Below, one piece after another: positions 28,376 through 41,607 of a stretch of 64,000 nucleotides of DNA; position 1 is the first letter of the stretch, and every line of letters begins with the position of its first letter. This stretch comes from a virus. Its lineage: Duplodnaviria; Heunggongvirae; Uroviricota; Caudoviricetes. The notes beneath the pieces were generated by a model that worked only from the letters and a program-made list of their open reading frames with translations, was not told where the DNA came from and did not search any database. The stretch is from the IMG/VR virus record IMGVR_UViG_3300009008_000002. One strand, given 5' to 3'. The translations under genes were made by a program, and so were the position numbers.

Positions 28376-28858
28376 TCACGAACCGCCAGGAGCGCCCCTG
28401 TTGTATTCGTGAATGTTGTCGGGAATATCAGGAGTTTGTGGAACTTGACAGCCACCACGGTGGCCACGGCAGTCGATTTCAAAACCGCCTTCTCGGTGCG
28501 TTTGACCATTTTCATCAACGGTCAGTCGGGTATTGTCGTCAGCAAAAACGACCTTCTCCACGCCCATGCCGCCCATCGTTCGGGCAATCTCTTCCTCCAT
28601 CAACTTTCGTTCCTGATCGGAACCGCTAAGTTGACCCTCCATGCCTTCCAGCATTTGCTCTGGCGTCTGCAATTCCAACGGCCCAGATGCCAAGGAATTA
28701 ATTTCATTCTCAGAACCAGGCGCAGGACCGGGTTGAGCAGCGCAAGGCTGAGTTGCGCTGGTATAGCCATTAATATTGTCGTGCTGAAGTTCAGTCCTTG
28801 GACGGTGACGCCCCAAAATTGCATCCAACTTCGCCAAGGCGGCTTTTCCATTTCTCAT
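28376..28858 (-). CDS. Hypothetical protein
   Basis: ATGA coupling to upstream gene. Confidence 0.6.
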   Translation of the reverse strand: MRNGKAALAKLDAILGRHRPRTELQHDNINGYTSATQPCAAQPGPAPGSENEINSLASGPLELQTPEQMLEGMEGQLSGSDQERKLMEEEIARTMGGMGVEKVVFADDNTRLTVDENGQTHREGGFEIDCRGHRGGCQVPQTPDIPDNIHEYNRGAPGGS

Positions 28859-30024
28859 TTTGCCTCTCCACGCATTTCTGTTGAGGAAGTTCCATCGTCC
28901 TGATACTGTTCAGGATCAACGATGCTACAAAGGTCAGACAGTAACGGATGAACCGGATTATCCACATCCACCCGATGAAACACCATAAATTTATTACCCT
29001 GCCGATGGAAAGATGCAATACACTCTTTTAATTGCGATTCATCGGCATAGTATTTGACGTTCGAGATTCGCAGGATGGTATCAAAACCCATCACAAATGT
29101 AGCCCCAGGAAACAACGCTGCCTTCTCAACAAAAAGAGGCGCGTTGGTTAGGGCAATACCACCGAACCACGGTTCATTTGTGATCTCTTTGAAGCTATCA
29201 AGTCGCCTTCGCAACGAGATAAAATCAATGGCGGGCTTATCCGCATTCTTTACTGAAATTTCAAATAAGACTGGCTTGCCGGTTTGACGGTGTGCAAGTC
29301 TTGCCATTTCAGTGTGATTTTTATGTAGCGGGCGAAAGGAACCAGGAAACACAACCGCATCAATGAATTCACCAAGCCCGATTTTAATTGACTCATTGGT
29401 TGCAACGGGAGGATCAACAGCAATATCATTGCCATTTTTCGTCAACAAACAAGCCTGTCTTCGACCGCAGACCACTTCCTGAATGGGGCCAGAGAAGGAC
29501 TCATGCGTTTCTATTAATTCCTCTCCCTGATCGGGGTGGAACATCAAAACATTCTCATGGACGCCACAGCACTTCGCCAGCGTATTTAAAATTAGGGTGG
29601 ACGCCATAGCCTCTTCGTTGCCGCGATCTCGATTGGCTTTCATATCGAGTTGCCGAAGAACGGTTTCTTTCTCCGTTTGGGCGGCTACATAAACGACGTG
29701 CCTACGACCAGCACGCTCCACTCCACCCTTTTTGACAAGACTGGCTGTAGCTCCAATGCCAACGATATTATCGGCATCCTTCGTGAACCTCTGCGCATGA
29801 TGAAATGCTGCCATTGCCATCAGTCGAGCAGTTTCACCTGAACAATACTTGTTGGGTTGACCACCGAGAAATTCATCCATCGCTACCATATCGTAGGGAA
29901 CGCGGGCCTCTAGCAGAGTGGAAGAACCACCACCCTCGCGCAGCAGCCTACCGATGGCCTCAGCGCCTCCCCCCGAAAGGGCCATAAACGTGCGATATGG
30001 GGATGACAGAATTTCGTTGATCAT
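28855..30024 (-). CDS. CinA-like domain plus cytidylyltransferase-fold (NMN adenylyltransferase-like) fusion
   Basis: SGGG..A...L...GG.S.TLLEA.VPY N-domain; FPGSFRPLHKNH (HxGH-like), NADKP, FVEKA.LFP...FVMGFDT. Confidence 0.8.
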   Translation of the reverse strand: MINEILSSPYRTFMALSGGGAEAIGRLLREGGGSSTLLEARVPYDMVAMDEFLGGQPNKYCSGETARLMAMAAFHHAQRFTKDADNIVGIGATASLVKKGGVERAGRRHVVYVAAQTEKETVLRQLDMKANRDRGNEEAMASTLILNTLAKCCGVHENVLMFHPDQGEELIETHESFSGPIQEVVCGRRQACLLTKNGNDIAVDPPVATNESIKIGLGEFIDAVVFPGSFRPLHKNHTEMARLAHRQTGKPVLFEISVKNADKPAIDFISLRRRLDSFKEITNEPWFGGIALTNAPLFVEKAALFPGATFVMGFDTILRISNVKYYADESQLKECIASFHRQGNKFMVFHRVDVDNPVHPLLSDLCSIVDPEQYQDDGTSSTEMRGEAK

Positions 30025-30162: not shown

Positions 30163-31566
30163 TTAAAGGCGGATAGTGGGTTCCGCCCGTTGTCGAACGT
30201 CGGCAAAGGTGTTTTCAAAAGTGATTTCACCATCACGGAAAACTTCTACCAACTGGTCGTCGCCTTCGTGAGTGTGAGGCACTGTTCTCCAATTTTTACC
30301 GTGCGGGCTTTCTTCGCAGAGCAACTTGAACCGGCCTCGCTTCGATTTCTTTCCGTGATCCGTGATGGGATTCTTAAATACATCCCGCCACTCACCATTA
30401 ACCTGAATGGCACTACACTTGAAAGCGAACTTCAAAGTGTCACGGTTTAGCTTTTGTAACAAACCACCACCCGAACCAAAAGCGATATTGTCTGCTGACC
30501 AATTCTCTCTCTTCATGGCGTAGAGAATCTGGTCAAGCATTTCAAAGTCAATTCCGTCACCTTGGATAATACGAACATGATCATCCAAAACCTTGTAACC
30601 CTTGTCGTTTGTGGTTCCACCAAATCTATCCCACAAAATGGGCAAGATTTCGCAAATGATTTTCGGCGGATCACCAGAGTCAGGGCGAATGACCAACGTA
30701 CCATTTCGATTTAAAACTTGGTCCCGTAGAACGCCACCCCAAATATCTCGACACGCCTCGAAAATATTATAGGAGTCACTGACCACAGCAACCAATCCTT
30801 CGGGATATTGAGTCAACATGTTTTTACATGCGTCACCCTCATTGTCTTGTCCCCAAGAGGTAATCGTGCTGTGTTCGGCGGCTGGAATCGAGAATCCCGC
30901 CATAGGTTCGCCGTAGTATCTCCGAGCATACATGACACCTTCGAGAGTATCAGTGCTTTTGAAATTAACAAGATGCCCAGCGCCGCCCATACCAGCCGTT
31001 TCCACACTGCTGACGCCTCGGAACCCAAAATCCACCAATTTGAAATCTACCAAGCATGGATCACCAGTCTGTCGCAGGTATTTTAGCAACAGGTGCTTCA
31101 TTTCGCGGGACTGAGTGGCTACCGTGCAAGGATACCAAGTTTGAACCAATAGAGTTTCCAGATAATTCGGAAGCCAATAAGCCGGTGTGGGCATATTGCC
31201 ATCGGTATTCATCACCGTCATCATGGCATTGTGCTGAGGAACAACCGTTCCTTCCGGTGGTGTCATGATGGACAGAGGCAACCGACCACCATGTTGATTT
31301 AAAATATATTCCCAACCAGCGCGGTTGAACATGGTTTCGTCACCAAAGTGGGCAAAACAAACCTCTGCGGCTTCTTCAATTTTATCTCTTGTGACAACTT
31401 GACCCGTAAGATACTTCTTCAGCAAAACTTGTAGACCGAAGAAAACAACATCATGGAACCTACCACCACGAGATTCAAAGTAAGAATAGACCGTCTGCGA
31501 ACCGGGTGGATACTGACGGTAATGAGAAACCTTGTAACTATCGGTTCTGAGAAGTATGTTGTCCAA
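30163..31566 (-). CDS. nadV: Nicotinamide phosphoribosyltransferase (NAMPT)
   Basis: TDSYKVSH, DFGFRG, SIPAAEHS, VVSDSY, IRPDSG, IQGDG, FGSGGGLLQ; TTG 31566 preferred to track start 31635. Confidence 0.95.
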   Translation of the reverse strand: MDNILLRTDSYKVSHYRQYPPGSQTVYSYFESRGGRFHDVVFFGLQVLLKKYLTGQVVTRDKIEEAAEVCFAHFGDETMFNRAGWEYILNQHGGRLPLSIMTPPEGTVVPQHNAMMTVMNTDGNMPTPAYWLPNYLETLLVQTWYPCTVATQSREMKHLLLKYLRQTGDPCLVDFKLVDFGFRGVSSVETAGMGGAGHLVNFKSTDTLEGVMYARRYYGEPMAGFSIPAAEHSTITSWGQDNEGDACKNMLTQYPEGLVAVVSDSYNIFEACRDIWGGVLRDQVLNRNGTLVIRPDSGDPPKIICEILPILWDRFGGTTNDKGYKVLDDHVRIIQGDGIDFEMLDQILYAMKRENWSADNIAFGSGGGLLQKLNRDTLKFAFKCSAIQVNGEWRDVFKNPITDHGKKSKRGRFKLLCEESPHGKNWRTVPHTHEGDDQLVEVFRDGEITFENTFADVRQRAEPTIRL

Positions 31567-32191
31567 TTTTTTTCTCCCTGCATGATTCCATAAAACACTC
31601 GAATTTAACAATAAATTCTTCGTGAGACAAATCAAACTTCATTAAATTGATCCAAATATGCACCCATTGAAGATTACTAATCTCGTTCTCGCCTCCCTTG
31701 CATCTGGGTTTTATGTGATCAATTGAAGCGTTTTTCCCAAGAATCAACTTGATTCCAGTATAAGGGCAACTACAATTTTGAGACTCAAATTTCTGTTGAA
31801 GTAAAAACCACTTACTTGAGTCCCCTAACCATTTATTGGCCAACTTCTTAAACCAGCATGTTTCACACAAATGATTATCAGTAGCCTTGTTTTTTCCACA
31901 CGATTCACACAATCCTTTGGACTTTAGAGAACGCCTCCTCTTTTTAACATAATTGTTTTGTTTTTTCCGACAACTCTCACACCTAATGTTGTTCTTGATA
32001 GAATTGCCACACCCTTTTGTTGAACACACATTTTGAGCTTTGGTTTTTTCCCGTCTCTTGGCATCATTTAATTTCGCTCTATCTTTACACGATTGACACC
32101 TTTGAATGCCTGTTAGATGGGGTAAGCGACCGCATTCACAACACAGTCCCTTGTTCAAACGTTGTTCTCTTGTCTTGTTGTTGCTTCCCAT
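31538..32191 (-). mobile_element. Free-standing HNH homing endonuclease with Zn-finger repeats
   Basis: CPYTG...SIDHIKP..KGG.NE.SNLQWVH..IN.MK; multiple CxxC; AT-richer; overlaps nadV start. Confidence 0.8.
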
Positions 32192-32219
32192 AAATACCTC
32201 CATTGGTATCTATGGGACT

Positions 32220-32254: not shown

Positions 32255-32581
32255 TCACTCTTTCACGCCATACCTATCCTCTAGGATTTCGTAAGCCGCA
32301 ATCGCCTCTTTTGCCTCTGCCAGAGCCTCTTCATTATCGGGGTTAAGGTCTGGATGCAATTTGAGAATGATTTTGCGGAATGCGTTTGAAATTTCGGCCC
32401 AAGTGGGATTTCTGATCTGAATTCCGATGACTTTCAATGGATCACGCGCACCGAGCAATCGACGTGCTTTTTCGAGTCCCATTCGCTCGAAAAAGGTATC
32501 GCGCCATTCGGTGGGATGACCATACCCCTCTTCTTCGGGGTCATAGGTTTCGTAACCTTCTAGGAATTCGTTTTTAGCCAT
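32255..32581 (-). CDS. J-domain (DnaJ-like) protein
   Basis: EISNAFRK..LKLHPD.NP...AYEIL with HPD motif. Confidence 0.85.
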   Translation of the reverse strand: MAKNEFLEGYETYDPEEEGYGHPTEWRDTFFERMGLEKARRLLGARDPLKVIGIQIRNPTWAEISNAFRKIILKLHPDLNPDNEEALAEAKEAIAAYEILEDRYGVKE

Positions 32582-32616
32582 TTTTGTAGTCCTCTGGGGT
32601 TTGTTTCAACTCCCAA

Positions 32617-34299
32617 CTACAATTTTGGCAGAAACACATGACTGGAATACAACCTAGCGGCCATGAACCTATACCCTTCATCCCACCACGTCTCCCTCGT
32701 TCGGGGGACGTGGAATGTTTCATACCCACGATGCAAGAGGCGATATTGTAACACATCCCTCTCCATTTCGTGTAGCCAAATAGAACGAGATAATTTATTG
32801 CCAACTCGTAGGTATGGTTTCAACAACCTCTCGGCCATCATTGACATTGTTTCCGGGTCGCCTTCCCAAACGCCATTAAATAAAACGTGAGTATTGGGAC
32901 TCTCGCCGGTTTTGGCCTCCAAATCAGGAAAATCGTGAATGGCAAGACCAGTTTCTTCATCCCCATCCAACCAGTATTCAACTACATCGCCTAGTTTCGA
33001 CTTAATTAGATTCCTTACACCAGCACGATCCCAAGTTGATCTTTGAATCTCAGGTCGAACAAACACAGCACGGTCTATATCAGAATTAAGGCCATATCCC
33101 TTCAATGTGGAGCCATACACGATACTAACTGGGTAAATAACCTCTAACAATTCAGGGTCTTTTAATATCTCCATCACAGAATTGCGGTTATCCTCAAATG
33201 GCGATAGATTGCCATAAAAAGGACCGGCAAGATTGGGATAAAAGATATTTAATTCTTCTCGTTTTTCGGTGAGATTGATTCCGATGCTATGCCAACGGCA
33301 AAACGCCTTAACAACGTGATCTCGCACTCTTTCATCTTGAGCAAACTCTGTTAATATTGGCTCAAACACCTGATACAACTCAATAATGGCTTTTTCTTTT
33401 TCCCCTTGTAGCCACGCCATTTCAACTGCTGATCTGATTCCAACAATGATACAACTGGTTGATTCGACCGTTGTTCCCATCCCTTTTAAATCTTGGCCAT
33501 GCAAAAACGCCTTCCCAACAGCACAACCAATGTTCTCAATGGTTTTCCTTCGCTTCTCCCAACGTAACCACTTCAGTCTTTTTTCGCTTACGCCAAGACA
33601 GCATGTGTTGTCTTCTTCTAGTTGGCGAGTTACAAAGTTGTGGAAATCATTCAGTGGGATTCTCATATCCACCACAGGATTCGGGTGTGGATAAGGCGCA
33701 GTTGAATTCCGTATTGATTCCTTTTGAAAATCATCCAAACTCTCGCCAGAGATTAACCCCTTTTCTAATAAAATAGGGGCGAGAAACCCAGCTTGACACA
33801 CTCTGTCTTCCACCCATTGATTGTCTTCAATGTCTGGGAGATCACCATCTATAAAATCAGCACGAATGTCATTTACTGTGAGAAGCCTGTGCCAACTTTC
33901 AAGATATAATTCAGAGAAGGTGTCAACCGCATCATCATATCGCCTATACCAATCGCCCCTCGGAATTAAACTCAATGGGCAATAAAGAAGGAACCGATCA
34001 TCTTCGCCTGAACTAAGCAACTCGTTCAGAGAATAATATAATTCCACAGGCGGCATTTTACCAGTCCACAATCTCTCTCTGTAGAGATTCCACTGGTAAT
34101 CAAGTTTAGCACGCAATTCTCGCCGTGCATCCACTTGCTTCGGATTGACTGCAAGCGCAGACCAAACCCCGGTTGAATCGTCGTTCAAAAGTGATTCAAC
34201 CGGGGCTGGTTGGCTGACGAATCTACTCGTCTTCATCATTGATGGATACAATCCCTTGAGTAGTGCGGTTGACTGCCCTACCAAATGGCGCGGCTGCAA
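32617..34299 (-). CDS. Pol-beta superfamily nucleotidyltransferase with large N-terminal domain (start uncertain)
   Basis: IVYGSTLKGYGLNSDIDRAVFV (GS...DxD). Confidence 0.7.
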   Translation of the reverse strand: MQPRHLVGQSTALLKGLYPSMMKTSRFVSQPAPVESLLNDDSTGVWSALAVNPKQVDARRELRAKLDYQWNLYRERLWTGKMPPVELYYSLNELLSSGEDDRFLLYCPLSLIPRGDWYRRYDDAVDTFSELYLESWHRLLTVNDIRADFIDGDLPDIEDNQWVEDRVCQAGFLAPILLEKGLISGESLDDFQKESIRNSTAPYPHPNPVVDMRIPLNDFHNFVTRQLEEDNTCCLGVSEKRLKWLRWEKRRKTIENIGCAVGKAFLHGQDLKGMGTTVESTSCIIVGIRSAVEMAWLQGEKEKAIIELYQVFEPILTEFAQDERVRDHVVKAFCRWHSIGINLTEKREELNIFYPNLAGPFYGNLSPFEDNRNSVMEILKDPELLEVIYPVSIVYGSTLKGYGLNSDIDRAVFVRPEIQRSTWDRAGVRNLIKSKLGDVVEYWLDGDEETGLAIHDFPDLEAKTGESPNTHVLFNGVWEGDPETMSMMAERLLKPYLRVGNKLSRSIWLHEMERDVLQYRLLHRGYETFHVPRTRETWWDEGYRFMAARLYSSHVFLPKL

Positions 34300-35582
34300 A
34301 GCCTCGCGCTCGCCGGAAGACCAGAATTGGGGTTGAACGGGTCTTCACCGATACCCTTGGGGCGTCGGCCTCGACCGGGAGTGATACGCTTGCCTTCCAA
34401 CTCATTCCACGGAATCTGCGAACCGAGCATGAACAAGCCACCGAAGTATTGCAACTCTTCGTTGCCACCAGCAACCCGGTCACACTGCATGATACCGAGA
34501 GTGAACCGCGTGAGGTTCTGTTCCATTCGCGGATACGTCGGCGGAACATCGACCTTCAGCTTCTTCAGCAACAGGTCACGACTCGGCATACCACACAGCA
34601 TCGGCAGACGCGGATTTGCGAGCATCTTTTTAATCTCGTTGGCCTCATAAGCGAGAGCCGCCGTGATTTGAACGCCCGTGCCTCGGAACGTCTTGTTGAT
34701 GCAATCGTTGACGGTCAAAGCAGCGTCACGCAACACGCCGCAATCCGGTGGCTGCATCATGCCAGGAGGCATCGGGGCACCACCACCGCCACCAACCAAG
34801 GAAGCCATCGCTCCCATCATCATGGCCGGATTCATGCCGCCTTGTAGCCACGCTTCCTGCCAAGCCTGAAGCTGGTCATTAAAACTGATGATGGATGGCC
34901 ACATGGCCTCATCAATTCGTGCCAGGAGCGTCTTTTTGCGACCTTCGGTGACGTAAGAAGCGTTCAGGCCCTTGATGGCCGCAAACAAGTCACCGTAAGA
35001 TTTCTTCGTCAATTGGTCACGAATCTGCCAGAATTCTTCCGTAACCTGCTCTTCGGTCACGTCGATGAATTCTTCCATTTCCGCAAGCAGGCGCTTGGAA
35101 ATGTCATACAGACCGAAGCGATCCGCAAGAGCCGCACGAATAGCCGAAATCACGGTGTCTTGACCCAACTTGAGAACGCCACCACTTCGCAGCGAATTCA
35201 ACCACGAATCATCATCGGGGCAAGTTGGCAAGACGGAATCATACGCAGCCGTAGCATCGCCATTAGAGACGGGCGCGGGTGCAACTGGTGCGGGAGTCAG
35301 ACCAGCAATGACCTTGCGAGCCTTCAAGACAGGCACGCCAACGGTGGTCAAATCGCCTTCCTGCAAACCGCTCAAATCATCAACGGTTTCGGCACCAAGG
35401 CCCTTGATTTTGCCAACCGTGTCGGCGTCAGTAATACCAAATTCAGCCAGCCTTGCAGCAATGGCATCAACAGGAGCCGCGACGGCTTCCACAGGTGTCG
35501 TCGGAGGAGTGTCGGGAGTGCCAGCAGGTGTGCCAGCAGTAACCGGAGCAGCAGCCTCTTCTGGTTTTTCAGGTGTCGTCAT
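34278..35582 (-). CDS. Hypothetical protein with SAM-like N-terminal domain
   Basis: P/A/T linker; LAEFGI...LGAETVDDL..L...DL..VGVP...ARKV; M/G/P-rich insert. Confidence 0.7.
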   Translation of the reverse strand: MTTPEKPEEAAAPVTAGTPAGTPDTPPTTPVEAVAAPVDAIAARLAEFGITDADTVGKIKGLGAETVDDLSGLQEGDLTTVGVPVLKARKVIAGLTPAPVAPAPVSNGDATAAYDSVLPTCPDDDSWLNSLRSGGVLKLGQDTVISAIRAALADRFGLYDISKRLLAEMEEFIDVTEEQVTEEFWQIRDQLTKKSYGDLFAAIKGLNASYVTEGRKKTLLARIDEAMWPSIISFNDQLQAWQEAWLQGGMNPAMMMGAMASLVGGGGGAPMPPGMMQPPDCGVLRDAALTVNDCINKTFRGTGVQITAALAYEANEIKKMLANPRLPMLCGMPSRDLLLKKLKVDVPPTYPRMEQNLTRFTLGIMQCDRVAGGNEELQYFGGLFMLGSQIPWNELEGKRITPGRGRRPKGIGEDPFNPNSGLPASARLCSRAIW

Positions 35583-36949
35583 TTTGTAGGTTCTCCTAAA
35601 CAGAGTTTGTCTTGTTTGGACGGGCCAAACGAAACTAGACCAACGGGAATCCCCAATTTTTCACGTAGTTCGTGATCACACAAGCGATACTTTTCTTCCC
35701 TCGATTCTGGGACGGGAATCGAAGTAATTTCCGGTTTACAATTAAACAATGCGTCACACACTGTTTCACTTAAACCATCATCATCGCCATCGAATATTTT
35801 AATACGACCATCAGCAATATACCTTTGATCGTAGTGACTATACCTGTTGCAAACACGCCAGTCGCCATTAATTTGGTCAAACCAAGTTATGGCTAACCAA
35901 TCAGTGTCAACACCACAAACTTCAACGGCGTATTTTAACAACATCAAATCAAGCGGACCAACTCTTACCTTGCCCTGATACCGATTCTCTTCCTTGTGGC
36001 TACCGGGCAGCAAATCCTCATTCATTGTCGGATCAGCAGTTGGCATCGGTCCAGCACCATGCCTAATTGTATAAGCACGATGCACGCCAACATTGACTAC
36101 TTCCTCATCGTATCCCTCCAACACCAGCATGTCTCTTGTGAAGGAAGGTAAAGTGCGAATAGCGCTAACATGTGGCTTGAAACCGCAGTGGTTGTCCGTC
36201 AGAATACCATGCGAACTTTCTACGACAGCCACACCATCTTTGCTAAACACTTCGTTTCGCATGTAGTCTTGACCTACAATTTTAGCAAGCCGACCAGCTT
36301 CACGGAAGCGGTCTACATTAAAATCAAGGAAATCATCATCCTTGAGCAATGTTGCTTCCCGATCAAAAATTTCGTGGTCGTCAGGATGAATCCATGCACA
36401 CCTATAACCAGCACCAAGGATTGTTTTTAATTTGGCTATTTGGAGATCACGAATCTGTGACAATTTACCACGCAAATCATCAACTAAATCGCCAACACGA
36501 ATAATTAATTCTGGGTTGGCTTCCGAATCTCGAAAAGCCTCACCAACTCCCGTGCCGATTGTGCCACGGGGACTTGGACCTCTGGCGATTTCTTTGAGGC
36601 GGGATGTAATACCATGATATTCTGTAGAACAAATTGCTCGTTCGTCAATGGTCAACAAATCAAAAGCATTCGTTACACCACAATACCGCAGCCCATCAGC
36701 CTCATTTAACAAACCTTCAGGGCTAACAACCATTCGAGGCGTAATATGCGTTCTCACACCTTCAAATGTTCCGCAACCCCACTGGCTAAATGCAAAACTC
36801 CATCGTTTCGTGCGAACACCGTGGCTTCCCTGAGCGCCACCTATTTTGATAATTGTATGCGCTTGATCCGCAAGCGCATGAACTACGCCGCCTTTGCCAC
36901 CGTCGCCGGGGCCTAAATCAAACACAAGGTAAATCTTTTTTGTAGGCAA
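35579..36949 (-). CDS. purA: Divergent adenylosuccinate synthetase-like protein
   Basis: DLGPGDGGKG, GGAQGSH, GTIGTGVG, RAYTIRHGAGPMPT, RVGPLD; aspartate loop non-canonical. Confidence 0.8.
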   Translation of the reverse strand: MPTKKIYLVFDLGPGDGGKGGVVHALADQAHTIIKIGGAQGSHGVRTKRWSFAFSQWGCGTFEGVRTHITPRMVVSPEGLLNEADGLRYCGVTNAFDLLTIDERAICSTEYHGITSRLKEIARGPSPRGTIGTGVGEAFRDSEANPELIIRVGDLVDDLRGKLSQIRDLQIAKLKTILGAGYRCAWIHPDDHEIFDREATLLKDDDFLDFNVDRFREAGRLAKIVGQDYMRNEVFSKDGVAVVESSHGILTDNHCGFKPHVSAIRTLPSFTRDMLVLEGYDEEVVNVGVHRAYTIRHGAGPMPTADPTMNEDLLPGSHKEENRYQGKVRVGPLDLMLLKYAVEVCGVDTDWLAITWFDQINGDWRVCNRYSHYDQRYIADGRIKIFDGDDDGLSETVCDALFNCKPEITSIPVPESREEKYRLCDHELREKLGIPVGLVSFGPSKQDKLCLGEPTK

Positions 36950-36970
36950 CGCTCAGGTTCTCCCTCTATT

Positions 36971-38128
36971 TTAAAGCCACTGGTCGTCGTCGGTCGTTTC
37001 GGTCAAATCATCGCCATCTTCCGTTTCAACCGCTTCCGCAGCCGATTCGATTGGCCAAATGTGATTGTCTTCCCAAACATCCGGCTTACCATCGAACAAA
37101 TCGCCCTTCTGGGGGCGACGACCGTAATCCGGCAACTGCTGTTGGGCACCAACCGGGACATTGACAACCGACTCTACAATTTTGTCAATCCACTGTGGCT
37201 TGATCGTCTCATTGCCTGTCTTGAGACCTTCCAAAAAGCCGGGAACATCATTCAACACCAATGTTCCCTCAGTCAAGCCGATAATGACAGCTTGGACTTG
37301 CGGCATAAACCGCATCTGAGGCAACGAAATCAGACGATCCTCGCCAGCAACGTCGAGCCAGAATGCCTTGGCTTCTGGGCAATCGCCAACCTGTAACACA
37401 AAGGCGTGAGCGCGGTCAAGCAAGGCTTCCCAAACATCGCTGGTTTGATGTTGACCCTTGCGGATTCGGTGGCCATTCTCAGCAACCTTGTCCCACGCTT
37501 CCTCACCGAAAACTCGCACGACATGAGCGGGATCAATCATGCCACGACCAGGAGCATCCGTAGCGATGAAATGGTAGCCTTTCAAGCCGATGCGATTAAT
37601 ATAGTGCCTACACAAATAGGCACCAGCGAACAAGCTGTAGTCGGGGTCTTCCGCATGGTCCTGCCCACCACCTTCAGGCACCATCAAGGTCAATTGCTTG
37701 ACGATTTTATCCGCTTCCATCTCAAATTGTGGGCGACACAAAATGAATCGGTCTTTAAAATCTCCGAAGATGCCAGTCGCGATCTGAACATCATATCCAT
37801 CCGTAACCTTCTGGATAGACTCGAAAGCGTTCGGCATGACCTTCATGGCAACGTCCACATTGTCACCCATGCTGCCAGTGGTATCGACGCAGGTTTCGAC
37901 GGGGAGAGGACAGCCCACAAGCATTTCCCACAACTCTTCGGGAGTTTTCTCCACACGGGGCAATGAGAGGCGAATCACTCCAAAGCCAGCCGGGTCCACA
38001 AGCGCCTCCAGCTTGCCAGTTGCCATTGCTTGGCGTTCAGCAGCAGCAGTCACGCGGCGTCCAGATGATACACCCTCAGTGGACTTGGCGGAAGTAAAAG
38101 CCGCTCTTGTAAATGTTCGTTTTCCCAT
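36971..38128 (-). CDS. vWA-domain protein
   Basis: MIDAS DTTGSMG; GGGQDHAE; FIATDAP. Confidence 0.8.
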   Translation of the reverse strand: MGKRTFTRAAFTSAKSTEGVSSGRRVTAAAERQAMATGKLEALVDPAGFGVIRLSLPRVEKTPEELWEMLVGCPLPVETCVDTTGSMGDNVDVAMKVMPNAFESIQKVTDGYDVQIATGIFGDFKDRFILCRPQFEMEADKIVKQLTLMVPEGGGQDHAEDPDYSLFAGAYLCRHYINRIGLKGYHFIATDAPGRGMIDPAHVVRVFGEEAWDKVAENGHRIRKGQHQTSDVWEALLDRAHAFVLQVGDCPEAKAFWLDVAGEDRLISLPQMRFMPQVQAVIIGLTEGTLVLNDVPGFLEGLKTGNETIKPQWIDKIVESVVNVPVGAQQQLPDYGRRPQKGDLFDGKPDVWEDNHIWPIESAAEAVETEDGDDLTETTDDDQWL

Positions 38129-38143
38129 AACAACACACTCCTC

Positions 38144-38971
38144 TCAACGGTCGTAAGTTGTGAACTTATAAAACCCCTTCTCCCAGACAGAATCGGGATT
38201 TTCGCAAAGATCATCAATAATCCGATAAAAAGTCTCATGCGCTTTGCTCGCATCAGATTCCCCACTGACGGCCAGTGAACGCAGATAGTTTGTGTAGGTC
38301 ACGTCATGTTCGTTCTCTTGGGCACGTTCTAAATCATCCCCAAGGGCCTCTATTATAACTTGAGCCGCAGCTTTAATTTCTCCACGTTTAACTTTGGCAG
38401 AAACCTGCCCATCGTGGATAACTGCCTTTGACCAATCAAAGATCAAAATGTAATGTTCGTCAGGCTCAATTAAAAGATTGTTGCCAGAAATTTGCCCGTC
38501 ACCCACTTGGAATCTGTGGTCATGGGTAAAGACCAATAACTTCAACAACTTCCCTGCCATCCAAGCGCTGGTGCGGAGATCAACGCGGAGTGAATCCTTC
38601 CAGATTTTAATGACTGGAATCATGGATTTAACTGAGGGGACATTACGGAAACCCAGAATATTGACTTGTTTCGTCTGAGTAATGAAACTATCATGGACTT
38701 CTGGAAAGCCCAGCTTGTAATTTAGAGGCACCACCCAATCAGCACCAGTTTGGGTCGCTGCATACTCGGCTTCAATCTCATCCGACCGTTTAGCGAGCCT
38801 ACTAAGAACCCAAGCATTTCGAGATATTTCGCCATTGTGACTTGAATCAGCAGCAACTTGGAACAACAACTCCCGACCATCCTCATCGGTACAGTTGTAG
38901 AGACGGTAACGAGAATTTTTGGCTACCATATCGCCAATCTCGTATGTGCTATTCCTACCTGTTACGTTCAC
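38144..38971 (-). CDS. Protein-kinase-fold protein, likely pseudokinase
   Basis: AWM.GKLLKLL.F.H...GQISGNNLLIEPD.H..LIFDWS; catalytic Lys and Asp absent. Confidence 0.6.
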   Translation of the reverse strand: MNVTGRNSTYEIGDMVAKNSRYRLYNCTDEDGRELLFQVAADSSHNGEISRNAWVLSRLAKRSDEIEAEYAATQTGADWVVPLNYKLGFPEVHDSFITQTKQVNILGFRNVPSVKSMIPVIKIWKDSLRVDLRTSAWMAGKLLKLLVFTHDHRFQVGDGQISGNNLLIEPDEHYILIFDWSKAVIHDGQVSAKVKRGEIKAAAQVIIEALGDDLERAQENEHDVTYTNYLRSLAVSGESDASKAHETFYRIIDDLCENPDSVWEKGFYKFTTYDR

Positions 38972-39015
38972 AAGGTTCTCCTGTTAATTTGGGGCGAAAA
39001 GTTTACCCCAATTTT

Positions 39016-39390
39016 TTACGCCTGATTCTGATCGGGATCAACTCCCAAAAATTGCTCCCGTTGTTGTCTAAGTAAGTGATAGTATTCCATTATCACTAAT
39101 TGATCGTTTTTATTGGCGACACGGAAACTTGTAAACACGGGGTAGCCATTAATTCCTCTTGGCCCAGCCTTCGACATTTCCTCATACAAAAACCCAATGT
39201 CGTCTAGCTCATCTTGGGTGTATCCCTCAAAAGCACCAAAGAGACATGGCATAAAAACCAAACCAATTATGCTGCTGTTGCCCGGTTTCATTTCCCACTC
39301 TGAAAACTGTAAGGAAGTAAAAATAGCTCCCTCAAGCATTTGAAGAGCGATACTTCGTCGTTCATTGTCTGGCAAATCAGGGTGTTTCAT
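39016..39390 (-). CDS. Conserved phage hypothetical protein
   Basis: AGPRGINGYPVF motif; ATG 39390. Confidence 0.7.
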   Translation of the reverse strand: MKHPDLPDNERRSIALQMLEGAIFTSLQFSEWEMKPGNSSIIGLVFMPCLFGAFEGYTQDELDDIGFLYEEMSKAGPRGINGYPVFTSFRVANKNDQLVIMEYYHLLRQQREQFLGVDPDQNQA

Positions 39391-39614
39391 ATCCAAACCC
39401 AGTCCACAGCTACCCAATTTACATGTTGAGGATTAGTTATTTGCTTAGCGTATTCATACGCCTCTTCTTTCATTTCATTCCACTTTTTATAATCCTCATG
39501 TTGATCCTTAGCCAAATCATCACTGGTGTATACCCACTGACGAGTGTAGTCTTTTTCTACTGCCCCAGGTAAAACGCCTGCGGTTACTGTCCATTGACCT
39601 TTCAATCTCGACAT
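39387..39614 (-). CDS. Hypothetical protein
   Basis: TAAATG coupling. Confidence 0.7.
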   Translation of the reverse strand: MSRLKGQWTVTAGVLPGAVEKDYTRQWVYTSDDLAKDQHEDYKKWNEMKEEAYEYAKQITNPQHVNWVAVDWVWI

Positions 39615-40160
39615 TTAATTACCTAAGTCAACTGCGGGAAATTTAACATGTGTAGCTGCAAGCCGCAATAAACTTAAATATGCTGTGCGGATTACATCGT
39701 CATGGTCAAATGCCAAAGGATACGGGAAATCATCAGCAGCCGGGAATTTCCAATCTACTTCGTCGGCGTCATCCCCAGCCACACATTTTTCTTCCAATTC
39801 TTCCGAAACAAACGCCCCGTAAACAACACTGATTGTGCGACCGCGAGGGTCACGATCTACGCCATCCCTTACATCCAATCGGATTAGCGTAATGTCGTCT
39901 TTTATAAGACCCGTTTCTTCTTCTAGTTCACGGTAAGCGGCCTCAATAAATTGTTCTCCATCATTCACGTAACCGCCCGGCACGGCCCAATATCCGTGAA
40001 ATACTTCCCCGCCTCTTTTAATTATCAGGATTTTTGGCAAGCCTTGCTTGTTGAAAGCGAACAAACAAATATCGACGGTCAAATCGCCAATCTTAGGCCA
40101 CTCTTTTGCTTCTTCTGCGCTCGGCATATTCTTCCCTTCTTTTGAGTCGTTGTTCCCCAC
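39615..40160 (-). CDS. Nudix hydrolase (ADP-ribose pyrophosphatase / NrtR-like)
   Basis: Nudix box GGYV.DGE....AAYRELEEETGL; RDPRGR.IS; LAFDH. Confidence 0.9.
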   Translation of the reverse strand: MGNNDSKEGKNMPSAEEAKEWPKIGDLTVDICLFAFNKQGLPKILIIKRGGEVFHGYWAVPGGYVNDGEQFIEAAYRELEEETGLIKDDITLIRLDVRDGVDRDPRGRTISVVYGAFVSEELEEKCVAGDDADEVDWKFPAADDFPYPLAFDHDDVIRTAYLSLLRLAATHVKFPAVDLGN

Positions 40161-40380: not shown

Positions 40381-40873
40381 CATCATCATCCTCCTCAAAG
40401 CACTTAGGGGATACGCAGCCATTGCCTTCCCCACGATGGTGCATGACCATTGCTGCTCTATTTAAATCGGCATGAGCGCCTTCATCATCACGCTCACAGG
40501 GAACATGCCATCTTATTTTAAGTTCTCCATCCATTTGTTTTTGGAAGTCACCCGGTTCCATGACCCTATCGCCCTCAGTTTCGATAAGATCACGACACCA
40601 GAGATTTTCTTCGTAACAAATCTTGTGGGATTCTGGGGCACAAATTCCGATCCAAACGTCGCCGTCACCATCTTCGCAATCACAAGACAACCTCTGGAAT
40701 CCGCAAACTTGGCATCTTGCCCAGTCGCATCCCTCTAAGTGAATATCTCCAATTTTAGCGGAGCAATCTGGACAACCTTCTCGCAATCCCTCCGTAACTG
40801 CAAAATACCGCAGCCATTGTGGGACTTCCCCAAGTTGTGTTTCAATTACTTTTAAATAATCGGCATCGTCCAT
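40370..40873 (-). CDS. Cys-rich Zn-binding protein
   Basis: CPDC...H..GCD.ARC..CG.QRLSCDC. Confidence 0.75.
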   Translation of the reverse strand: MDDADYLKVIETQLGEVPQWLRYFAVTEGLREGCPDCSAKIGDIHLEGCDWARCQVCGFQRLSCDCEDGDGDVWIGICAPESHKICYEENLWCRDLIETEGDRVMEPGDFQKQMDGELKIRWHVPCERDDEGAHADLNRAAMVMHHRGEGNGCVSPKCFEEDDDDAP

Positions 40874-41607
40874 ACATCTTCTTCCTCTCGTTCAGGAAGA
40901 CCAATGGCTTCCCTATACTTGTCTTCTAACCCATCCTCCAACCCACACCTATTACAATCAACGGACAATAGGTTTTCAACCAATTCCTCTTCCGTTGATT
41001 CCACAGTCCCGATTTTGTAGCAAGTTGGAGACTCGCCGCCAACAATTGAGCCGTCAACATTTATTGATGGTGTGCAAAACTTGGCAGATTGCCTCAAATA
41101 CAACAAAGCCGATGAAAAACTACCAAGTGATCGAACTATACTCCTCAAATTAAAACACATGGGAGCAAATCGACCATCAATATTAACATCATTATCCTTG
41201 GCTCGACCCAATGGTGTCAAGACACGCAAGGTATCCTCATAGGTAAACAAAGGATGGTCTATGCGCTTGACTCTTTTGGGGTAAAATCTTGGATCATTCG
41301 TTATTTGAACAGGCAATTCTAATGCCTTCACCTTCTCCAACAATTCGTCATCTTCCGCAAACATGCCATTGCTGAGAATTAAAATCAAAGGCAACTCACA
41401 TTCTTTCGCCATCTCCACCATTTTAAAGAAATCAGGATGATCCAAAGGTTCGCCACCTGAAATCATTAAAACCTCAAGCGGGTATCGCACAACAAAGCCC
41501 AGAACCTTCGCAAAGGTTTCAAGGGACATGTGTTCGCCATCTGGATTTGCACAAACCATGCAGTGTGTGCAACCCATGTGACAACATTCTGTAATACGAA
41601 CCAACAT
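40852..41607 (-). CDS. Radical SAM protein
   Basis: CHMGCTHC (Cx3Cx2C), SGGEP, SNG; C-terminal Cys cluster. Confidence 0.9.
   Translation of the reverse strand: MLVRITECCHMGCTHCMVCANPDGEHMSLETFAKVLGFVVRYPLEVLMISGGEPLDHPDFFKMVEMAKECELPLILILSNGMFAEDDELLEKVKALELPVQITNDPRFYPKRVKRIDHPLFTYEDTLRVLTPLGRAKDNDVNIDGRFAPMCFNLRSIVRSLGSFSSALLYLRQSAKFCTPSINVDGSIVGGESPTCYKIGTVESTEEELVENLLSVDCNRCGLEDGLEDKYREAIGLPEREEEDVWTMPII

Follow-up and report, generated by a model that had tools for sequence, protein, structure and literature searches.

The virus record IMGVR_UViG_3300009008_000002 encodes a conserved, cassette-like module of five genes, A to E, that recurs in phages and in the ultra-small bacteria of the Candidate Phyla Radiation (CPR) and of which we could find no published description in a literature search. 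We analysed a 64,000-nucleotide (nt) stretch of this record, referred to below as the window, to which all positions refer. The module comprises a probable pseudokinase (A), a vWA protein with a MIDAS-like motif (B), a relative of the purine enzyme PurA (C), a protein with an (HhH)2/SAM-like N-domain (D) and an MNT-type Pol-beta nucleotidyltransferase (E). It lies in a block (32255-40160) that an initial annotation, made from the sequence alone, had flagged as an undescribed multi-gene system, and all domain calls of that annotation (Nudix, pseudokinase, vWA, PurA-like, SAM-like, nucleotidyltransferase and J-domain) hold. Our preferred reading, to which we give a probability of roughly 0.45, is that the core of the module is a C-centred GTP-dependent ligase complex that has acquired new acceptors and works in the NAD/ADP-ribose economy of the cell.

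A five-gene cassette in phages and CPR bacteria

Relatives of C were detected in 468 genomes by a pattern scan in which each species was represented by a single genome. From 86 related loci, tblastn with the window proteins recovered C in every case, B from 85 loci, E from 77, A from 76 and D from 73; the order A-B-C-D was fixed, with E adjoining. The same searches detected the Nudix gene that neighbours the module in 14 of the 86 loci and the window's J-domain gene in none. Five phage-like contigs (L088, L089, L154, L155 and L156) encode a C that is 51-66% identical to that of the window and, where the sequence reaches, carry A-B-C-D-E co-directionally as in the window; one further phage-like relative was compared by gene table alone. 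Only A-E, of 43 window proteins tested, were common to the window and these five contigs. The boundary of the cassette is therefore 38971-32617, and the Nudix gene, the small open reading frames (ORFs), the HNH gene and the Nampt and Nmnat genes were not inherited with it. The proposal of an undescribed multi-gene system thus stands for A-E, which co-occur in the 86 loci and the five phage relatives, and the flagged block was wider than the functional unit. The cassette of one of the five relatives (L089/L152, IMGVR_UViG_3300000976_000008, 408 kb), which belongs to the same clade as the window and is complete and co-directional, had no Nudix, J-domain or Nampt gene within 10 kb.

Within CPR the module is widespread but patchy, with strong matches to the family profile in 3 of 301 genomes sampled across the phylum and 6 of 201 sampled across the class (centre genome counted in both). 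Among GenBank phages, neither megablast with the block nor tblastn with B, D and E gave a match, and A and B of distant phages were recovered by profile comparison alone. PADLOC-DB 2.0 contained no match to A-E, and gave a generic Nudix match for the neighbouring gene only.

In a quick maximum-likelihood tree of C, for which the root was assumed, the window and the five phage relatives formed one clade (SH-aLRT 100), nested in a group of non-Saccharibacteria CPR (support 98). The C proteins of cluster C mycobacteriophages and other viral versions fell on a long outgroup branch. This topology suggests that the cassette passed in complete form from a CPR bacterium into a single phage lineage. 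E is convergent in CPR genomes and co-directional in the phage clade. The initial annotation had supposed that the phage version added the nucleotidyltransferase and the SAM-like protein; this is not supported, as the approximately 76 non-redundant bacterial loci mostly encode all five genes and the phage copy is nested in the bacterial diversity.

Some taxonomic labels in this set probably need correction. The C protein of a nominally viral contig (L090/L153, IMGVR_UViG_3300028454_000294) is nearly identical to those of two contigs from Saccharibacteria metagenome-assembled genomes (MAGs; L072 and L075, branches ≤0.02), and this contig is probably a mislabelled bacterial contig or a prophage region. 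A CPR-type module also occurs in MAGs labelled as Gammaproteobacteria (L008, L014, L018, L020, L044 and L054), Fibrobacteres (L017), Fimivivens (L012) and Omnitrophota (L007). In the tree, the C proteins of these MAGs group among CPR sequences, next to those of Wildermuth-, Falkow-, Moran- and Uhrbacteria, and either the labels or the binning of these MAGs are probably wrong.

The PurA-like enzyme and its partners

Similarity of C to PurA extends over the full-length fold (PF00709, 126.3 bits, residues 15-447), but the score of 94.6 bits against the NCBIfam purA model TIGR00184 is far below the cut-off of 395.55. C also matches phrog_1211, which carries a PurZ label, at 7.1e-37. Several signature elements of PurA are kept, namely the P-loop GDGGKG with the catalytic Asp13, His41 (H43 in C), the guanine-specifying Asp of TWFD and the C-terminal GTP contacts S440/G442; across 16 family members, GDGGKG, H43, the TWFD Asp and S440/G442 do not vary. 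The acceptor side is different. N38, T129, R143 and Q224 are IMP ligands of Escherichia coli PurA; in C, N38 is replaced by Gln (Q40), T129 by Ile (I131) and Q224 by His (H247), and R143 is lost. Alignments to 5i33 and 6bs7 show that the aspartate loop, Thr-Thr-Gly-Arg-x-Arg in PurA, has become RYQGK-VR, with one Arg position deleted. This residue map shows that C keeps the predicted GTP-binding and phosphotransfer residues and that the putative aspartate site and part of the IMP site, including two ligands of the IMP phosphate, have been lost. The family has also gained invariant His and Cys residues foreign to canonical PurA (H24, H31, C59, H112, H247, H260, H297, C367 and C424; alignment A1), a set that suggests a metal site or a new catalytic apparatus.

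Genome content is consistent with a changed role. Canonical PurA is encoded alongside C in two genomes (G001 and G002, 408 and 379 bits), and in two others (G003 and G004) C was the sole PurA-family match and PurB was not found, an absence that is inconclusive in MAGs. Because C coexists with canonical PurA in the first pair and occurs without PurB in the second, it is predicted not to serve AMP synthesis as known. Together with the residue map, these four genomes support the expectation that C is something other than an ordinary adenylosuccinate synthetase.

B is the invariable vWA/MIDAS neighbour of C. Its Atlas model (pTM 0.85) has vWA clusters as structural neighbours (TM 0.45-0.69), and Pfam VWA_4 gave one sub-threshold match among B orthologues (14 bits, cut-off 27). 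A variant MIDAS, D82-x-T84-x-S86 with D191, is invariant in 25 B sequences, and 33 distant viral homologues carry the motif DxTGSM. At a fixed distance of about 62 amino acids (aa) before the MIDAS is an N-terminal motif, MG-x3-[FW]-[DS]-x3-[YW], which was found in 33 of 43 distant viral loci, in gp271 of phage I3 (as annotated by others), in the window and in the aligned CPR loci; M1 is invariant and G2 at least 90% conserved (alignment A3). The C terminus is an acidic tail with WL as its last residues. In the distant phage L106, the gene upstream of C matched B at 98.5% in hhalign. Complex structure prediction, one of the checks proposed at the outset, was run for B and C and gave an ipSAE of 0.54 (best control, 0.19), with a partner pLDDT of at least 81 and at least 77% of contacts shared between runs. 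Of 80 solved complexes, 58 reached the pass mark used, as did 2 of 110 mismatched pairs, and passes at or below 0.60 count as weak; the prediction lends weak support to a B-C complex.

A is probably an inactive protein of the kinase fold, as judged from a profile of 30 orthologues. The profile matches the catalytic-loop region of CK2-alpha (E = 6.9e-06), and A matches phrog_3043, annotated as kinase, at 3.2e-07. Across the 30 orthologues, the positions of the HRD Asp and the beta3 Lys are not conserved, and the Asn and the DFG-like Asp are kept in 24 and 21, respectively. In two distant viral loci, the gene directly upstream of B-C encodes a J-domain fused to an A-family domain (L092, DnaJ 3e-15 and hhalign 97.4%, E = 1.5e-11; L133, hhalign 93.3%). 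These fusions confirm that the arrangement described in the initial annotation, a J-domain-linked inactive kinase with vWA and a divergent PurA, exists. DnaJ is also among the commonest Pfam families in 149 ORFs flanking distant viral C loci; phmmer with single J-domain queries was too insensitive for counting fusions. The window encodes its J-domain as a separate gene, with the HPD signature in LHPDLNP (DnaJ 38.6 bits, cut-off 27.8), and no J-domain was found near the module in the close phage relatives. Because the fusions in distant viral loci provide a Rosetta-stone link, it is plausible that this separate gene is a facultative partner that recruits host DnaK.

The remaining two proteins are less well anchored in known families. 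D consists of a low-complexity leader rich in Pro, Ala and Thr, an (HhH)2/SAM-like N-domain, a linker rich in Gly, Met and Pro, and an all-alpha domain of unknown fold (AF2 model, pLDDT 77.6). The assignment of the N-domain is weakly supported by matches to the RAD51 N-domain (Foldseek probability up to 0.92) and to the RNA polymerase alpha-CTD and the SAM domain (E = 0.03-0.04). E has helical N-terminal and middle domains followed by the nucleotidyltransferase domain (AF2 model, pLDDT 84.1, pTM 0.85). Residues 366-510 match the MNT antitoxins 7ae2_B and 5yep_A at a modest Z of 6.1, the profile matches HI0073 at 8e-4 and GLD-2 at 1.6e-3, and the GS...DxD motif is intact, with G396, S397, D407 and D409 invariant. 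Foldseek searches of the PDB with whole-chain models of E and D returned nothing significant, and a wide structure search with E gave HEAT-like helical matches only, at Z values (≤8) that are common for helical proteins. In the AFDB clusters, D has one uncharacterized relative of matching length and architecture (E = 1.9e-12) and no other, and E has three of matching length and architecture that are uncharacterized or generically named. For both D and E, the Atlas models were of unusable quality.

Gene context and possible functions

In three independent settings, gene context points to a tie of the module, or its B-C pair, with NAD/ADP-ribose metabolism. In CPR, palindromes were counted de novo, yielding a box, TAGTGT-N7-ACACTA, whose sites were scored at up to two mismatches; of the 88 sites found in 1.38 Mb, 30 are at most 350 bp upstream of A, covering 24 of 71 CPR loci. 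The box also flanks NrtR/NadB and NadE in a Paceibacterota locus (L002), in which the module is located between NadB-NadA and NadE-rSAM-NadK-Nudix-NMNAT-PncB-PncA. NrtR is encoded within 10 kb of the module in 9 of about 76 loci, often immediately adjacent. CPR copies are also found beside the housekeeping genes rpsP and trmD. In the distant phages L106 and L121, the B-C pair sits amid Nmnat-Nudix and Nampt genes, and of about 60 distant viral loci, 6 have a Nampt gene close to C.

In the window itself, the module is flanked by an ADP-ribose-type Nudix gene on one side and by Nampt and Nmnat genes on the other. The Nampt assignment is clear, and the protein is 52% identical to the Nampt next to the distant C of viral locus L100; the Nmnat-like call is marginal (CTP_transf_like, 21.7 bits, cut-off 21). 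The Nudix protein (Pfam, 71.1 bits) has a complete Gx5Ex7REUxEExGU box and shares 29% identity with the Nudix domain of NrtR from L002; its best NCBIfam matches are NtrR and NMNAT/Nudix models, all far under their cut-offs. A conserved role for Nudix in resetting the system, as had been proposed, is not upheld, since only a minority of loci have the gene beside the module and the five close phage relatives lack it there. Among the 149 ORFs flanking distant viral C genes (A6) were four with DUF7873 and one each with NADAR, an NrtR winged-helix domain, R2K ATP-grasp, HAD_SAK_2 and TROVE, families that hint at a connection of some B-C neighbourhoods with ADP-ribose and RNA repair.

A working model for the GTP-dependent ligase complex can be drawn from these features. 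C would be its catalytic heart: with GTP as the donor, it would phosphorylate an oxo group of a nucleotide-like acceptor that is not IMP and then couple the phosphorylated acceptor to an amine other than free aspartate. B may dock on C through its metal site and either activate C or supply the nucleophile. The dead kinase A would scaffold the complex, and the J-domain, fused or encoded separately, would recruit host DnaK. E could tune the complex by nucleotidylylation, in the way that GlnE nucleotidylylates glutamine synthetase, possibly assisted by D. In the window phage, a module placed beside Nudix, Nampt and Nmnat might keep pools derived from NAD and adenylate usable during infection, a benefit that would plausibly count against NAD-depleting host defences.

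Several observations weigh against this reading. NAD genes or the NrtR box accompany a minority of copies (box, 24 of 71; NrtR, 9 of about 76), and Nampt, Nmnat and a matching Nudix gene are absent next to the module in the available sequence of the five close phage relatives. In the window itself, no NrtR box is convincing; the 64 kb contain three sites of the two-mismatch type, about the background, and the one at 39080-39098, about 110 bp upstream of A and inside a 133-aa ORF, is treated as a chance-level site. The patchy spread of the family (3 of 301 and 6 of 201 genomes) is as compatible with an accessory or conflict element as with a metabolic one. Purine genes lie near the module in two close phage relatives and hint at purine chemistry instead of NAD chemistry: the JGI 3300040801 contig has a PurB-like lyase (Lyase_1 and ASL_C) seven genes upstream of the module, and L156 has an adenosine/AMP-deaminase-family gene (L156:4713-6733), closely preceded by Rrf2 and Nudix genes. 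All chemical steps of the model, including its substrate and product, are inferred.

The initial annotation had favoured a conflict system. In this alternative, a modified purine nucleotide would be made or attached as a signal, toxin or anti-defence product independently of NAD supply, with the vWA protein, the pseudokinase and the J-domain protein as adaptors. The patchiness of the module and its behaviour as a cassette carried by otherwise unrelated phages would suit such a role, as would the presence of a vWA protein, a dead kinase and an MNT-type nucleotidyltransferase, domain types typical of such systems, and of NADAR and NrtR_WHD genes near some viral copies; yet no toxin-like effector domain was found in any of A-E, and CPR copies sit beside rpsP and trmD or inside an NAD biosynthesis operon, under the same box as the NAD genes. 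Because of this NrtR/NAD-operon context and the lack of PADLOC matches to A-E, the conflict reading is weakened, and we regard it as unlikely.

A second alternative is protein-nucleotide conjugation, in which C would link a purine nucleotide to the alpha-amine of B Gly2, exposed after removal of the Met. The fixed spacing of the N-terminal motif of B from the MIDAS (about 62 aa in 33 of 43 distant viral loci, I3 and the window) would fit a substrate, although a conserved N terminus may instead serve folding or docking. The loss of the ligands of the aspartate carboxylate in C, the obligate neighbourhood of B and C and the weak complex prediction (0.54, control 0.19) also agree with conjugation, but that prediction came without a contact map, leaving the N terminus of B unplaced relative to the active site of C. 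C would have gone from metabolic ligase to protein modifier in the way that PafA arose from glutamine-synthetase-like ancestors; for protein purinylation of the type considered here we know of no precedent. Overall, conjugation seems distinctly improbable. A combined and bolder version is a long shot: C, as a GTP-driven ligase, would attach a nucleotide to the invariant N-terminal Gly of B rather than to free aspartate; the conjugate, under NrtR/ADP-ribose control in CPR and in NAD-salvage operons in phages, would regulate or execute a step of NAD/ADP-ribose recycling; and the complete, host-like cassette would identify the phage, whose size is 193 kb or more, as one that infects CPR bacteria.

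Least probable is ordinary purine salvage, with C as a divergent AMP-forming enzyme (from IMP via adenylosuccinate, or directly with ammonia) for adenylate-short hosts or phages: Pfam and PHROG place C in the PurA/PurZ family, G003 and G004 have no canonical PurA, and a PurB-like gene and an adenosine deaminase gene lie near the module in two phage relatives, but C has a different aspartate loop and has not kept Q224, T129 or R143; G001 and G002 encode a canonical PurA besides C, and no PurB was found in G003 and G004, which have C; the score of C (94.6 bits) falls far below the equivalog cut-off of 395; and four obligate partner genes would go unexplained.

The proposed GTP-dependent ligase complex would be of broad interest. 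An enzyme complex without a described function is present in hundreds of CPR species and in many large phages, including cultivable cluster C mycobacteriophages, and its presumed catalytic subunit is a textbook purine enzyme with both acceptor sites rebuilt. NAD+/ADP-ribose metabolism is a current central battlefield between phages and bacterial immunity, and working out the chemistry of the module could uncover a nucleotide or protein-nucleotide product not seen before, together with a further layer at which NAD is reconstituted or controlled.

Layout of the window and comparison with known systems

The features of the flagged block and its surroundings are listed in Table 1. Because most large ORFs of the window have no PHROG family (exceptions being a clamp-loader-like AAA protein and a sigma-like protein) and the PurA-like protein is on record in a 193-kb contig, which sets the size of the phage at 193 kb or more, we read the source as a novel large phage.

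Table 1 Genes of the module and its neighbours in the window
Feature	Position	Strand	Evidence and remarks
Nudix hydrolase, NrtR/NadM-Nudix (ADP-ribose) type	39615-40160	-	Pfam NUDIX 1.2e-19, intact box; neighbour, not a module member
Small ORF, one of two (75 and 133 aa) between Nudix and A	39387-39614	-	No family; not conserved in relatives
Small ORF, one of two (75 and 133 aa) between Nudix and A	39016-39417	-	No family; not conserved in relatives
A, probable pseudokinase, first gene of the module	38144-38971	-	CK2-alpha profile match; phrog_3043 'kinase'
B, vWA/MIDAS protein	36971-38128	-	Atlas model, invariant MIDAS-like motif
C, predicted PurA-superfamily GTP-dependent ligase	35579-36949	-	Pfam Adenylsucc_synt PF00709 1.7e-36
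D, (HhH)2/SAM-like N-domain and all-alpha domain	34278-35582	-	Weak fold and profile matches
E, MNT-type Pol-beta nucleotidyltransferase	32617-34299	-	Intact GS...DxD; probable true start ATG 34239
J-domain protein, facultative accessory	32255-32581	-	Pfam DnaJ 1.1e-09, HPD present
HNH endonuclease	31538-32203	-	phrog_1035/2214 ~5e-08; Pfam HNH weak
Nampt	30163-31635	-	Pfam NAPRTase 1.3e-56, NAMPT_N 2.6e-39
Nmnat-like CTP_transf protein	28855-30024	-	CTP_transf_like 2.5e-04

Several structural observations of the initial annotation stand in part. The block is indeed co-directional, but nearly all coding in the window is on the minus strand, and the arrangement is not special to it. The core genes are tightly spaced (A-B, 15 nt; B-C, 21 nt; C/D, an overlap of 4 nt), but the reported D/E overlap exists only if E starts with the TTG at 34299; an E that starts with the ATG at 34239, 60 nt downstream, is separated from D by 38 nt. 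This ATG is as likely as the TTG and is the start in the Atlas record of E. The core is richer in G+C (48.5%) than the window (45.7%), ranking fourth among 231 equal-sized windows, but the excess is limited to B (52.6%) and D (55.9%), with A, C and E average or lower. Nampt and Nmnat do lie downstream of the module, but not directly, as the HNH gene, probably a mobile insertion, separates the J-domain gene from Nampt. The longest Nampt ORF overlaps the HNH gene by about 100 nt, and the true Nampt start is therefore probably further downstream. A scan for promoters and terminators in the window was at or below the shuffled expectation, with none above chance. Two genes upstream of the Nudix gene is a radical SAM gene (40852-41607); radical SAM genes also occur in the NAD clusters of L002 and L008. 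The window gene was dropped as a candidate part of the system, having no tblastn similarity to the radical SAM gene of L002.

The closest well-characterized relative of C is PurA (EC 6.3.4.4; PF00709; PDB 1ade, 5i33 and 6bs7), with which it has in common the full-length fold, the GTP site and the catalytic Asp and His. It differs in its rebuilt aspartate loop, altered IMP contacts, new invariant His and Cys residues and constant vWA partner, and in being found alongside a real PurA and without PurB. PurZ, of the 2-aminoadenine 'Z-genome' pathway, is likewise a phage-borne PurA paralogue and lends its label to phrog_1211, but the PHROG score of C is no better than its generic PurA score. The catalytic Asp is kept in C. 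C also belongs to the CPR clade of the tree, with the homologues of cluster C mycobacteriophages as distant kin, and its neighbours are a vWA protein and a pseudokinase rather than DatZ/MazZ-type genes, for which no systematic search was made.

Pairing of a MIDAS-bearing vWA protein with one dedicated enzyme and a chaperone is familiar from CbbO-CbbQ, which serves Rubisco, and from NorD-NorQ. The chaperone of those systems is a MoxR AAA+ ATPase, whereas that of the module would be a J-domain protein of the Hsp70 system; a role of B as an activase is putative.

By their domain matches, the Nampt and Nmnat-like genes just downstream of the module in the window form a NARP2-type NAD+ salvage pair (Nampt and Nmnat; bioRxiv 10.1101/2024.02.11.579819). 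The B-C pair of L106 and L121 lies inside such an operon, and most copies of the module have no Nampt nearby. The papers on NARP1, NARP2 and NARP3 (bioRxiv 10.1101/2024.02.11.579819; PMC13464706) do not mention PurA-like, vWA or pseudokinase components.

The nearest counterpart in a cultivated phage is a trio of genes in Bixzunavirus I3, a cluster C mycobacteriophage. Its gp270, annotated as a kinase, belongs to the A family (hhalign 98.7%), gp271 belongs to the B family (hhalign 98.6%) and has the same MG...W...Y N terminus, and gp273 is 31% identical to C. The trio differs from the module in an extra small ORF between B and C and in the stretch examined has no adjacent NAD genes; D and E are not found next to it, nor did they have a tblastn match in GenBank phages, including those of cluster C. 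As a counterpart of A-B-C in phages that can be grown, the trio offers a laboratory system for the chemistry of the module.

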